Shown here one piece after another: positions 22,270-32,271 of a stretch of DNA of 64,000 nucleotides. Both the position numbers and the translations under genes were made by a program. The DNA is from a virus, in IMG/VR virus record IMGVR_UViG_3300045988_110853, positions 4,077 to 68,076 of that record; one strand, given 5' to 3'. Numbering within the stretch: the first letter of the stretch is position 1; every line of letters begins with the position of its first letter. The notes beneath the pieces are model-generated. The model did no database searches, was not told where the DNA came from, and saw only the letters and a program-made list of their open reading frames with translations.

Positions 22270-23148
22270 TTAATTTCGACCAACATCTAAAATATAACAA
22301 AAACCAGCTAATCTATATTCAGGTTTAAAGAAATATTGAGCTAAAGCTTTTGCGCAATGATCCGCAGAATTTCGTCCAGAAAGTTTAATGTTATTAAATC
22401 CAAGAGGAAGATACTTATCAATAATTTCATCCATATAAATCATATCTTTATTACCGATTTCTGGAAACATAGAATCATTATTTTTAATAGTAGTACAACT
22501 TCTTTCTTTATCATTAAAAGCCTGAAAAAGATTCATTTTAGAAAAAATATTATAATGAGTATATAAGCGCGGACAGTCAATAGGACATGTTTCGTCTACC
22601 AAAATTTCAATTCTATTCCTTTTATTTTCTGGTACAGAATTTAAAAAATCCCAGTCTCGATTTTTACGACGAGGAATAACTACACTTTCATAAATATCAA
22701 GTGCTTTTACAAAATCATAATCTTCCTTTGCAGCTGTAATACTCTTTGTAAGTTTATAATTAGGAAACTTATCTCGAAGATACTTTTCGAGAATAGGAGA
22801 ATTAACAATAATTTCATTCATTCCATTATCAAAAAGTTTAAGCATTTCATTACATTGTCTATCATATACGTCTGTTTCTTCAAGGTTAGGATTTGTAAGG
22901 GTAAAGCGCAAAATAATATTATTCTTTTCATAAAATTCTCGTACAGCACAGAGATAATCAATATTATGTTCTGGCATTCCGCCCATAAAACCTCCGCCAT
23001 TCCAAATCATGCCAGGAAGTGCACCATAAACATATTTTACTTTTGCTTCTGGATAAAAAGCTTGAGGTTCAAGCTCTTGAAGTTCAAGTAATCTATCATA
23101 AACATCAATACCATAATAAAATTCAGGGCAATTAAAATTAATATCCAT
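22270..23148 (-). CDS. hypothetical protein, last gene of YcaO/radical-SAM cluster
   Basis: 292 aa ORF, very AT-rich codon usage. Confidence 0.55.
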   Translation of the reverse strand: MDINFNCPEFYYGIDVYDRLLELQELEPQAFYPEAKVKYVYGALPGMIWNGGGFMGGMPEHNIDYLCAVREFYEKNNIILRFTLTNPNLEETDVYDRQCNEMLKLFDNGMNEIIVNSPILEKYLRDKFPNYKLTKSITAAKEDYDFVKALDIYESVVIPRRKNRDWDFLNSVPENKRNRIEILVDETCPIDCPRLYTHYNIFSKMNLFQAFNDKERSCTTIKNNDSMFPEIGNKDMIYMDEIIDKYLPLGFNNIKLSGRNSADHCAKALAQYFFKPEYRLAGFCYILDVGRN

Positions 23149-23161
23149 TTATATTCTCCTA

Positions 23162-24979
23162 TTAGTAATTTGCAATCATTGTTTTAAAATCTTTAGAATT
23201 AAAAATTTCTCTCATTGGTTCAAGAATACATTTTTCAACCAAATATTTTCTATTTAAAATATTATTAAAATCTTCATTAGTATATTCATAATTATATTCT
23301 TTTAAAATATCAATTATTTCATCTTTAGAATATTTCCTACTTTTTACATAAGAATATAAATTAAGATACTTTTTAAATTTTTTATAATAAGGACTTACTG
23401 TAATATCTACGGCAAATTGATTATCTTCAAGAAGATAATCAGCAGGATCTTCAAATAGATTTTTTACAAAAATTTCATTAGGAATAGTTTGCACATCTAC
23501 ATTATTATATGAAACAAGTAAATCTCCTTGTGATAAAAGCCCTAAAAATCTATCAGTTAAAGTGTCTCCTTCAATTAAATCTGTAAATGTTAAAGAATCT
23601 TTAATAATATCATATACTCCATCACCAGTATCTAAATATTTTTGAATATGTCCGCATTTATTTTTAGTAAGAATAGCACTTTTTTTTAAAGTCTTTAATG
23701 TTTTACATTTATTTAAAAAAGAATACCAAAATCCGTCAAGATTGTCAAGATAAATATCAATTGCTGTAATTTTATTACTTAAAGATACATCAGCATAATA
23801 AATTTTTGCTCCAATTGATTTTGTAATTTTTTTATTCCACTCAAGAATTTCTTCATTAGAATAACTTTTATTCTCGTAGGATAAGAATACATCTTTATTT
23901 ATAGTATTTACATACTTTTTATTAAGAAGAATATTCTCAGGAAATGTATTTAAATTAGTAATACAAGAACCACCCATGATAATAATATCATCATCATTTA
24001 ATGTATTATAAGGAAGAATAATAGAAAATTTTCTATCATCATAAGAGAAACAATTTTGATACATTTCAGTTAAAATACGTTCAACCGCAATTTCAAACAC
24101 AGGAAAAGCGCCAAAATTTGCAGAAATAGTTCCATTTTTATAATTGATAAGAACTCCCATTACTACTGGAATATTAAAAGTTCTTGACATATCAATAATA
24201 TAATATTTATTACCATGAGATTCAATAGCATTAATAATATCTATTAGTTTTTTATCAGTAATACTATTAATATCAAAAAAATAATAATTTTTATCAGTAT
24301 TAGTATAAAAATGACTAACTACGTAATGTTCAAAAATTTCTGATAATCCTTGATTTAAAGCTTCAGTTAAAGTATTACCAGCGGCCATACCAGAGCTACC
24401 TTGATAACGTTGAACAAGACGTGGGTCTAAATATTTAATATCTTTATCATCGTTTAGATTGATATAAGGAGTGCCAAAAAATTTATTATTATACATAGAA
24501 ACAAGACAATCTTTAATTAAATAGTTAGTTTCTTCATCAAAAGAATTAAAAAATTTATACATTAAAGATTCTTTTTCTCCAAGAGCTTCTTCAAAGCTTA
24601 CTTCTTTTTCATTTTTAAATAATGAATATCCATAATTTTTTTGATTTGCTTTAATTTTTTCATTACATAAAAATGGATTACATAAATAATGTAATCCATT
24701 ACAAAATCTTTCATACATTTCAGCGTATCCAGAAGCCATAGCGAATTCTTTAGATACTCCTTTACCGAAAGATCTTAAAATAGAATGACCTTTATAATAT
24801 AAACGAAGAGCAAGACTCCAAGTCGTAGATTGTTCTTGACGCAAAACTTCTTCGATGCAATAAAAGTCTCGATCCGCGAAGAATTGCTTAATGTTATTTA
24901 CTGTGTCTAGAGGACTAATTTCTTTATAATGTTGTGAATAATTATTCATATGATATTTTGCCTTTCTTTTTCCTATCAT
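23162..24979 (-). CDS. YcaO-domain protein with about 300 aa C-terminal extension of unknown type
   Basis: SFGKGVSKEFAMASGYAEMYERF and QGSSGMAAGNTLTEALNQGLSEIFEHY match YcaO ATP-binding motifs; 605 aa, no in-frame stops. Confidence 0.7.
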   Translation of the reverse strand: MIGKRKAKYHMNNYSQHYKEISPLDTVNNIKQFFADRDFYCIEEVLRQEQSTTWSLALRLYYKGHSILRSFGKGVSKEFAMASGYAEMYERFCNGLHYLCNPFLCNEKIKANQKNYGYSLFKNEKEVSFEEALGEKESLMYKFFNSFDEETNYLIKDCLVSMYNNKFFGTPYINLNDDKDIKYLDPRLVQRYQGSSGMAAGNTLTEALNQGLSEIFEHYVVSHFYTNTDKNYYFFDINSITDKKLIDIINAIESHGNKYYIIDMSRTFNIPVVMGVLINYKNGTISANFGAFPVFEIAVERILTEMYQNCFSYDDRKFSIILPYNTLNDDDIIIMGGSCITNLNTFPENILLNKKYVNTINKDVFLSYENKSYSNEEILEWNKKITKSIGAKIYYADVSLSNKITAIDIYLDNLDGFWYSFLNKCKTLKTLKKSAILTKNKCGHIQKYLDTGDGVYDIIKDSLTFTDLIEGDTLTDRFLGLLSQGDLLVSYNNVDVQTIPNEIFVKNLFEDPADYLLEDNQFAVDITVSPYYKKFKKYLNLYSYVKSRKYSKDEIIDILKEYNYEYTNEDFNNILNRKYLVEKCILEPMREIFNSKDFKTMIANY

Positions 24980-31456: not shown

Positions 31457-31563
31457 GCAGTACTAACAATGTAAATTACATCCGCATGAAGACACGAGCG
31501 TTACTGCTCTAATATCTATATCTGTATTTTTTTTCATAGACTCTCCTTTTTCTCTTAGAAAAT

Positions 31564-32271
31564 TTAAGACCTTGATCTTCCCGCTCCGCTTCTATTTGCG
31601 CTGTTAGGGCTATAAGCACCTCTATAAGAACAAGCTCTATAATTGCCTCTATGGCTACCATTATTAGACCCTCTATTACTTGTATAATAAGTATAATTAC
31701 TTGAATAATTAGAGCTATTATAAGCATTATTAGAGCTTCTATTAGAACCGTTATAAGCATTGTTAGAGCCTCGATGAGTTCCATCATAAGCATAATATCC
31801 ATTTCTATGGGAACCATCGTAACTAGCACGATAAGCGTTATTAGAAGATCTATAACTACCGTCATAACTACTATCATAGCCATAATTAGATGCTCTGTAA
31901 GTACCATTATAACTACCATCATAAGCATTATTAGAAGCTCTATAACTGCCATTGTAACTACCATCATAAGCGCAAACCGCGTTTACTTCTTCAAGCTTTG
32001 TCCTAATCTGTGATAATGGAGTATGTCTAGTTAGTTCATTTACTCTTGGGGCTGTAAAAGTGTCAAAAGTTGCTTTTGTACCAACATAAGATACATTTCT
32101 TAAATTTTCAATTTCGTTCTTTATTGTGATAACATCTCGCGCCCCAACTGCTTGTCTAGCTTTATCAGGGATAGCAGTTCTACGCTGAGAAAATCTCGTT
32201 TGTGCTGTATTTAAGTTATCATATAAAGCACGAACATCAGCCCATGAAATTCGACTTCCTGCTCCTGCCAT
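31564..32271 (-). CDS. tandem-repeat Tyr/Ser/Asn/Gly/Arg-rich protein; candidate modified-peptide precursor or substrate
   Basis: 235 aa; 110-aa N-terminal region then about 8 repeats of AYDGSYNGSYRASNN; immediately upstream and co-directional with rSAM genes. Confidence 0.5.
   Translation of the reverse strand: MAGAGSRISWADVRALYDNLNTAQTRFSQRRTAIPDKARQAVGARDVITIKNEIENLRNVSYVGTKATFDTFTAPRVNELTRHTPLSQIRTKLEEVNAVCAYDGSYNGSYRASNNAYDGSYNGTYRASNYGYDSSYDGSYRSSNNAYRASYDGSHRNGYYAYDGTHRGSNNAYNGSNRSSNNAYNSSNYSSNYTYYTSNRGSNNGSHRGNYRACSYRGAYSPNSANRSGAGRSRS
31600..31990. repeat. coding tandem repeats (about 45 bp unit) inside 31564-32271
   Basis: gtaactaccatcataagcattattagaagctctataact-like unit recurs about 8 times. 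Confidence 0.6.

Follow-up and report, generated by a model that had tools for sequence, protein, structure and literature searches.

The described systems closest to the locus reported here are those for RiPPs (peptides synthesized on ribosomes and modified after translation) that are built on radical S-adenosylmethionine (rSAM)/SPASM maturases, comprising the triceptide/3-CyFE enzymes ChlB and XyeB, the SCIFF/ranthipeptide enzymes CteB and PapB, and the HxsB/HxsC pairs. In these systems the precursor lies directly 5' of one or two rSAM genes, and a short aromatic- or Cys-containing motif is repeated many times in the substrate. ChlB is a multiple cyclophane synthase that acts on YDR motifs, and CteB is a thioether-forming SCIFF maturase. 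Other RiPPs have large structured leaders (nitrile-hydratase-like and Nif11-like leaders; proteusins and prochlorosins), in which the N-terminal region is long, folded and conserved, the modified part after it is hypervariable, and one enzyme set serves diverse cores. We analysed a window of 64,000 nt from a gut phage (IMG/VR record IMGVR_UViG_3300045988_110853, positions 4,077-68,076; coordinates below are those of the window) carrying a gene cassette that shares both the gene order and the repeated substrate motif of the rSAM/SPASM systems, and whose repeat protein resembles the nitrile-hydratase-like and Nif11-like leader RiPPs in its long, folded, conserved N-terminus and the hypervariable region after it. 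A first-pass annotation, made from the sequence alone, had proposed peptide or protein modification for this locus, and our analysis supports that proposal. We put at about 0.62 the probability that the phage carries here a RiPP-like cassette for post-translational modification whose substrate is its own repeat protein, encoded at 31564-32271.

When TAG was read as a sense codon, eleven co-directional genes were resolved on the minus strand between 32696 and 22270 (Table 1). Under the standard code the stretch from 25.7 to 28.3 kb was split into fragments, which merged into long minus-strand open reading frames (ORFs) with TAG as sense, and the total ORF length of the window rose. Five of the eleven genes carry in-frame TAG, and their translation requires the CTA-anticodon tRNA, which belongs to a 20-gene tRNA array at 10855-22192; Gln was the commonest residue aligned opposite TAG in homologues. 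Gene callers that assume the standard code break up five of the eleven genes, which explains why such clusters have been missed. The array also holds a TCA-anticodon tRNA (10855-10934), yet TGA is the stop of several cassette genes. As had been noted, no part of the window is richer in AT than the cassette, whose GC content is 0.22-0.29 over the block, 0.18-0.30 in the enzyme genes and 0.36 in the repeat-protein gene, against 0.33-0.45 in the surrounding sequence. The genes of the first-pass annotation were all recovered on the minus strand with coordinates unchanged or nearly so, but its limits of 22270-32271 were too narrow: the unit reaches further upstream and includes the gene at 32286-32696.

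Table 1. Positions of cassette features in the window, and gene content of related loci
Feature	Position	Strand	Length	Remarks
tRNA, anticodon CTA	12207-12296	-	90 nt	Reads TAG; long insert or variable region
U32-like TIM-barrel protein	22270-23148	-	292 aa	Invariant C188-x3-C192, H198, Y199 and C218 (22495-22587)
YcaO-domain protein	23162-24979	-	605 aa	YcaO domain aa 72-399 (23783-24766)
167-aa protein	25051-25554	-	167 aa	C-terminal CxxC...CxxC pair; 2 in-frame TAGs; homologues only in close relatives
rSAM-GT2 fusion	25713-27767	-	684 aa	8 in-frame TAGs
rSAM domain of fusion	27357-27665			aa 35-137; PF04055, 33.3 bits (cut-off 29.5)
GT2 domain of fusion	26391-26747			aa 341-459; PF00535, 52.5 bits (cut-off 23.3); DSDD motif in FWDSDDLF
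g27739	27739-28320	-	193 aa	5 invariant Cys in zinc-ribbon-like arrangement; 5 in-frame TAGs
g28310	28310-28636	-	108 aa	Acidic, Asn-rich; conserved immediately 3' of rSAM-B in other loci
rSAM-B (radical-SAM/SPASM)	28629-30035	-	468 aa	CNQKCEYC motif 29871-29894; SPASM region aa 323-418 (28782-29069)
rSAM-A	30035-31537	-	500 aa	CxxxCxxC motif 31457-31480; in-frame TAG 31463-31465
Candidate substrate	31564-32271	-	235 aa
Substrate N-domain	31960-32271			aa 1-104; conserved, helical
Substrate tail	31567-31959			Units of ~4 residues, [Y/H/N]-x-[G/A/S]-[S/T], in 15-aa repeats (YDGSYNGSYRASNNA); C-terminal NRSGAGRSRS
136-aa protein	32286-32696	-	136 aa	Beta-rich, unknown function; 1 in-frame TAG; first gene of divergent block
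Upstream boundary	32830-32873	-		Terminator-like hairpin (13-bp stem and T run) overlapping a promoter-like site
L005/L006				TGA-recoded; YcaO, U32-like, three rSAM genes, GYNNHRN-repeat protein; between tail-fibre and endolysin genes
L007				TAG-recoded; YcaO, substrate, rSAM-A, rSAM-B, GT
L028				U32-like, g27739-like, substrate, rSAM-A, rSAM-B
L033				Prophage beside TerL, Clostridiales Family XIII isolate; U32-like, rSAM-GT2, g27739-like, substrate, rSAM-A, rSAM-B, g28310-like, two U32-like, DAHP synthase
L034	2287-21297 of L034			TAG-recoded, 22% GC, binned Muribaculaceae; two complete tandem cassettes, one repeat protein in each; five U32-like genes across the locus
L042, L043				YcaO, substrate, rSAM-A, rSAM-B
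aa, amino acids; GT2, glycosyltransferase family 2; L-numbers, related phage, prophage or metagenome-assembled genome (MAG) loci compared with the window; P0-numbers in the text, homologous proteins.

The repeat protein is the best candidate substrate because a member of its N-domain family was found immediately upstream of the rSAM pair wherever the N-domain was detected, directly 5' in the window, L001-L004, L007, L017, L028, L033, both cassettes of L034, L036, L039, L042, L043 and L045. Its tail is composed of Tyr/Ser/Asn/Gly/Arg repeats, and Tandem Repeats Finder located a repeat at 31813-31971 (period 45, 3.5 copies), bearing out the earlier description of a tandem-repeat, Tyr-rich protein. 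No signal peptide was seen by eye, and no curated Pfam or NCBIfam family cut-off was reached. The AlphaFold2 model of the N-domain was a helical bundle (predicted local distance difference test, pLDDT, 78), with which a fold search returned no convincing or informative match. An exhaustive profile search with the N-domain recovered 111 cluster representatives (clusters at 50% identity), each with a short-repeat tail of its own, for example FNSS, GFSFSGDR, NFSGNHSGFRAT, SYNxSYRTS or NYTPTYSSNNN. Most of these proteins are 130-280 aa long with the domain N-terminal (C-terminal in three). Their tails are rich in S (15.5%), N (10.8%), F (10.2%) and G (10%) as well as T, D and Y, and the modal spacing between aromatic residues is 4. 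A second substrate subfamily, reached via rSAM-B loci, has a 'CRNT' junction and either S/T-N-G pentapeptide or Cys-rich repeats. They make up a sizeable family of candidate substrates, not described before, that occurs in gut-Clostridia phages and prophages; the bacterial records with rSAM-B homologues were likewise mostly from gut Clostridia (Oscillospiraceae, Lachnospiraceae, Roseburia, Faecalibacterium).

One metagenomic member of the family, P0071 (373 aa), carries a C-terminal Hint/intein-like domain right after its repeat tail (Intein_splicing, E=8e-8), which suggests autocatalytic C-terminal processing or ligation in that protein. Two other ideas about the tails were not adopted. The first, that they are N-x-S/T arrays serving the GT2 domain, gave 355 such motifs against 241 expected when pooled, but a per-protein median z of only 0.24, with no enrichment in the second subfamily. 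The second, an anaerobic sulfatase-maturase-type formylglycine motif (C/S-x-P/A-x-R), did not fit the repeats when considered by eye.

A CxxxCxxC motif is present in all three rSAM enzymes of the cassette. The first of them, rSAM-A, had been taken for a degenerate enzyme starting at 31456 because a TAG lies inside this motif; its true start is 31537, the motif is canonical once the TAG is read (CNLHC-TAG-YC), and PF04055 matched at E=1e-7 (32.7 bits, cut-off 29.5). The best solved relative of its family profile was ChlB (E=1.3e-4, over the rSAM core). Its supposed SPASM domain did not hold up as a full one, with only three invariant Cys in the C-terminal half of the family alignment (C325, C343 and C446), and any auxiliary-cluster domain is therefore predicted to fall short of the full, seven-Cys SPASM, which was found in rSAM-B only. 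There, all seven Cys (C323, C341, C386, C389, C395, C399 and C418, including a CxxCx5CxxxC block) were invariant in 11 homologues of 27-69% identity, and the family profile, which reached rSAM enzymes in the PDB, matched CteB, a peptide maturase of solved structure (5wgg), in its SPASM region at E=3e-9; PapB, HxsB and QhpD-type maturases were matched weakly. The SPASM assignment for rSAM-B stood at the level of the family but was below threshold in hidden Markov model searches with the single sequence (TIGR04085, 16.5 bits against 27), in which its radical-SAM score was also low (PF04055, 13.1 against 29.5). The known 3-CyFE models of NCBIfam gave no score for the cassette proteins.

Many independent loci share this gene set with its order kept, which is beyond chance. 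All eleven genes were found, in order, in L001-L004 and L017, which come from one metagenome (contigs of 97-194 kb), and, the window not counted, the trio of substrate, rSAM-A and rSAM-B recurred at about 15 loci of phage, prophage or MAG origin. Beyond the close relatives it was found in L007, L028, L033, L034 (twice), L042 and L043; in L036, L039 and L045 substrate and rSAM-B were detected with an ORF of rSAM-A size, itself undetected, between them. The remaining enzymes behaved as interchangeable accessories: YcaO was carried by L005, L007, L008, L042 and L043, U32-like paralogues by L005, L028, L033 (three copies), L034 (five) and L040 (two), and, among distant loci, the rSAM-GT2 fusion by L033 and L034. 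The identity of rSAM-B to that of the window was 35-42% at loci with aromatic-tetrapeptide tails and 29-32% at loci with S/T-N-G pentapeptide or Cys-rich tails; that it follows tail type fits co-evolution of enzyme and substrate. It also speaks against the idea of a different target for the enzymes (a tail fibre or other virion protein, or a protein of the host), with the repeat protein as scaffold, chaperone or structural component. That idea draws on the position of the cassette beside tail-fibre-like genes in the window, L005 and L035, and on rSAM-B loci without a detectable N-domain protein, yet wherever the N-domain protein was detected it adjoins the rSAM pair, and each of the two cassettes of L034 has a repeat protein of its own; we consider it improbable.

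Comparison with the closest relatives showed that the cassette diverges sharply from its surroundings. Against L002-L004, the flanks were 89-94% identical at DNA level but 22093-31732 only about 72%, and flank proteins were 92-100% identical whereas cassette proteins were 40-77%. The upstream boundary coincides with a drop in protein identity to these sister phages from 92-100% to about 40%, the 136-aa protein being 40% identical in L002-L004 and the next gene upstream 92-100%. The repeat motif of L002-L004 (SSDYSSNNAQR-type) differs from that of the window, and repeat number varies even among near-identical alleles (proteins of 231, 235 and 250 aa). From these identities the cassette appears to be a swapped or fast-evolving allele within otherwise near-identical phages. 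Allelic replacement between near-identical, co-occurring phages suggests diversifying pressure, and on that ground the cassette is a candidate for shaping how the phage interacts with its host or with the gut.

Among the accessory enzymes, the rSAM-GT2 fusion is continuous in the window only when its eight TAGs are read through. Its homologue in the standard-code prophage L033 is a single uninterrupted ORF of 689 aa with the same two domains (L033:4985-7054), so the fusion is real rather than an artefact of recoding, and of the two possibilities left by the first-pass annotation, fused or adjacent, the former is correct.

The YcaO assignment was confirmed well above threshold (PF02624, E=1.2e-27, 97.6 bits against 25.7; TIGR00702, 83.4 against 75.65). 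The best PDB match was Escherichia coli YcaO (4q84, E=1.7e-22), on which both acidic segments aligned, EMYER on EYFER and SEIFEHY on SEVFERY (GMAAGNTLTEALNQGLSEIFEHY on GMSAGNTRNEARVQGLSEVFERY); we take these to form the ATP/Mg-binding site. The best NCBIfam model was YcaO_for_S12 (NF040716), with 99.6 bits against a cut-off of 700, and every equivalog cut-off was failed. Hallmarks of TOMM cyclodehydratases were absent from this protein (TIGR03604, 33.3 against 219; a C-terminus of ...DFKTMIANY without PxPxP). Pfam and NCBIfam searches of the cassette proteins yielded neither an E1-like/Ocin-ThiF partner domain nor TfuA, and the McrA-type model scored 28.7 against 365. By sequence, this YcaO is closest to the E. 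coli type and not to the azoline-forming TOMM type.

The last gene, previously listed as a 292-aa protein of unknown function, encodes a U32-like TIM barrel. BLASTP linked it (2e-12) to a homologue in L005 that passes PF01136 (23.3 bits, cut-off 22.4), although the window protein itself scores below that cut-off (12.3 bits, E=0.1), and its confident AlphaFold2 model (pLDDT 87.8) has the U32 TIM-barrel fold. The canonical U32 [4Fe-4S] motif comprises four Cys, CX6CX15CX3/4C (PMC6747719), from which the C-x3-C-x5-H-x19-C pattern found here departs in order and spacing. U32 proteins are now viewed as Fe-S, prephenate-dependent hydroxylases of aromatic rings rather than peptidases, the characterized members RlhA and TrhP being implicated in RNA hydroxylation (PMC10990095). 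Two distant homologues of the window protein, P0157 and P0162, have about 95 extra N-terminal residues, and in P0157 this extension gave a weak precomputed Pfam match to PqqD; such an apparent fusion in one relative points to a peptide substrate. P0157 is encoded in a compact, bacterial-style operon (L047, 464-3717) together with a 40-aa Cys-containing peptide and a PqqD-rSAM-SPASM gene, a classical small-peptide RiPP operon. In L033, a bona fide DAHP synthase (14160-14978; NF006421, 390 bits, above cut-off) follows the U32-like pair and precedes the terminase, a hint, from one locus, at supply of prephenate or of aromatic amino acids for the aromatic-rich substrate.

The RNA-hydroxylating U32 proteins and the resemblance of the YcaO to the S12-methylthiotransferase accessory type raise the question of whether the cassette instead modifies nucleic acid or the translation apparatus (tRNA, rRNA, DNA or ribosomal protein S12), in connection with the tRNA array and recoding, the more so as tRNA arrays flank it in at least seven loci. 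We regard this as very improbable. No MiaB/RimO-type domain (UPF0004, TRAM), queuosine enzyme or nucleotide-sugar enzyme was found with Pfam or NCBIfam, and the nucleotide- or queuosine-type link that would have counted against the first-pass annotation thus did not appear. The YcaO_for_S12 score lies far beneath its cut-off, the rSAM-B profile matches a peptide maturase, the weak PqqD match of the U32-like homologue is to a peptide-binding domain, and L005, L034, L043 and L045 carry cassettes without nearby tRNAs. We also rejected the tRNA array as a codon supplier for the substrate gene, which ranks 34/67 in codon match. The direct adjacency of array and cassette (window, L002, L007, L033, L039, L040 and L042), at rSAM-B identities of only about 30-70%, may simply reflect shared genome architecture.

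With a protein as the substrate, the main alternative is a classical RiPP, whose N-domain would be a leader removed by cleavage and whose modified tail, whole or in fragments, would be set free at lysis to act as a bacteriocin-like, signalling or host-directed peptide. RiPP operons typically have such an enzyme set and place the precursor ahead of its maturases, a conserved Cys or junction motif ends the N-domain, the tails are hypervariable like RiPP cores, and an enzyme of this U32-like family also serves L047, a bona fide small-peptide operon; an exporter would be unnecessary since the phage lyses the cell. Set against this are the lack of a recognizable protease in the cassette (U32 proteins now being seen as hydroxylases rather than peptidases; PMC10990095) or of an immunity gene, and the substrates themselves, which span 130-420 aa, keep a folded and well-conserved N-domain and in some cases have conserved C-terminal motifs. 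On balance we think a cleaved product unlikely, though it deserves to be taken seriously.

Under the preferred reading, in which the intact repeat protein is modified, the helical N-domain of about 100 aa would serve as a large structured leader or docking domain for the rSAM pair, and rSAM-A and rSAM-B would work repeatedly along the short-repeat tail. One side-chain cross-link per repeat unit seems most likely, cyclophane- or ether-type on Tyr/His in the window allele and thioether-type where the alleles of other phages are Cys-rich. The YcaO may activate backbone amides with ATP, the rSAM-GT2 fusion may glycosylate, and the U32-like barrel, presumably of Fe-S type, may modify the product further, possibly by hydroxylating aromatic rings independently of O2. 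According to a published idea recoded stop codons mark late genes, and late expression is suggested by the in-frame TAGs together with a position near tail, lysis and tRNA genes. The product would then be a protease-resistant modified protein, either attached to the virion or released at lysis. A role in interaction with the host or environment is favoured over one in nucleic-acid metabolism, given the fast-diverging allele, the neighbouring tail-fibre, lysis and tRNA genes and the need for a TAG-suppressor tRNA. A bolder version would make this a new 'mega-RiPP' class of protein maturation, in which a dedicated helical docking domain presents a hypervariable tail that is cross-linked by the rSAM pair, hydroxylated by the first peptide-directed, prephenate-dependent U32-type enzyme, activated by YcaO and glycosylated, giving a protease-resistant and possibly adhesive filament or coat that is displayed or released, with the cassette swapped like a host-range module; we entertain this as a possibility but hold it doubtful.

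The preferred reading builds on features that we observed directly, namely the gene content and domains, the adjacency of substrate and rSAM genes, the family of substrate proteins and the need for TAG suppression. Several points weigh against it. Reaction chemistry, biological role and product fate are all inferred; the sole grounds for a virion or late role are gene position and TAG content. Run as a single sequence, rSAM-B stays below the Pfam and NCBIfam cut-offs. The YcaO belongs with the E. coli type, itself biochemically unclear, and lacks the known azoline or thioamide partners. Neither PF05402 nor a RiPP recognition element (RRE)/PqqD domain was detectable in any window protein by Pfam, phmmer or hhalign, and a leader protease, exporter and immunity gene were not recognized in the cassette. 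L035, L037 and L038 have rSAM-B but no recognizable N-domain protein. Although short aromatic repeats dominate the family, Gly often stands two positions after Tyr in the window allele (YDG, YNG), and the repeat Y-x-G-S thereby misfits the classical three-residue cyclophane rule of triceptides, aromatic-X-X3, which needs a C-beta on X3.

The smaller cassette proteins were less informative. The 136-aa protein had no match in Pfam, NCBIfam or PHROG, and its homologues were found only in close phage relatives. For g28310, jackhmmer found homologues in L033 (one) and L034 (two), with no Pfam match; g27739 is a conserved accessory gene with homologues in L012, L028, L033 and L034. Comparison of both with RRE sequences (phmmer/hhalign) revealed no RRE similarity. 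Promoter-like sites, each a consensus match only, as is the terminator-like hairpin, lie at the upstream boundary (a strong one, TTGACA-17-TATTAT with TG) and, as a perfect consensus, after the last cassette gene; a further promoter-like site (25577-25605) is placed just 5' of the gene at 25051-25554.

The cassette stands in a context of tail-like, endolysin-like and ATPase genes. In the conserved flank, beside an M28-like peptidase (34496-35602), two paralogues of 476 and 534 aa (33195-34625 and 37133-38737; about 30% identity) carry, at the C-terminus, Cys-rich arrays with numerous CxxC pairs and matched only phrog_18912, of unknown function. Positions 1-8400 hold a run of tail-fibre-like paralogues with a common N-terminal motif (IP..GE......KIGDG....L), including the near-duplicate pairs 1746-2510/3104-3892 and 2-526/2507-3073. 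At 7424-8590 of L035, a Roseburia-binned locus, a tail-fibre-like gene, not an N-domain repeat protein, lies directly 5' of rSAM-A. In the window, plus-strand ORFs at 53500-55200 are extremely dense in in-frame TAG (53526-54176 has 10 in 216 aa), in a region with a GC content of 0.275 where GC skew flips sharply to +0.43.

Searches for the system elsewhere returned little. Among the 50,697 deposited phage genomes of INPHARED there was no match to the 10-kb block by megablast or to rSAM-B by tblastn, and the sole match to the YcaO was an E. coli prophage copy of host-type ycaO. Only a generic 'radical SAM' family was matched in PHROGs, and full-text literature searches on phage YcaO/rSAM RiPPs, U32 proteins in RiPPs and triceptide repeats yielded no description of such a system.

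Compared with known rSAM/SPASM maturases, the cassette differs in reaching no NCBIfam family cut-off, in having no RRE found and in being carried by phages, and its substrates (130-420 aa) differ in their folded N-domain of about 100 aa and up to dozens of repeats. Mycofactocin biosynthesis (MftA, the rSAM/SPASM MftC, the RRE protein MftB and the GT2 MftF) is similar in that a Tyr-containing peptide is acted on by an rSAM/SPASM enzyme with a GT2 in the cluster, and the fusion matched the MftC (0.0038) and MftF (0.0057) models weakly, far below their cut-offs. The cassette, however, has no equivalents of MftB, MftD or MftE, its rSAM and GT2 are fused, and in place of a 30-aa peptide with C-terminal Val-Tyr it has a long repeat protein for substrate. 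E. coli YcaO, the accessory factor of RimO in S12 methylthiolation, is the best relative of the window YcaO over aa 25-310 (identity about 28%), but the latter has no RimO-like partner, is unrelated in sequence over its C-terminal 300 aa and sits in a peptide-modification cassette. From the U32 family (UbiU/UbiV, RlhA, TrhP), proposed to be prephenate-dependent O2-independent hydroxylases, the window protein differs in its Cys pattern and in a Pfam score below cut-off. If the preferred reading is true, multi-enzyme RiPP-type chemistry would join the late genes of large stop-codon-recoded gut phages and Clostridia prophages. The varied repeat tails of the 111-cluster substrate family are a ready library for finding new radical-SAM cross-links, and a peptide-directed U32 branch could provide a long-sought in vitro assay of U32 chemistry, for which the L047 operon is a tractable model. 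In sum, the logic of the cassette is that of known rSAM/SPASM RiPP systems; what is new is the family of substrates, tailoring by a U32-like enzyme, its combination with an E. coli-type YcaO and an rSAM-GT2 fusion, and the setting in recoded phages.

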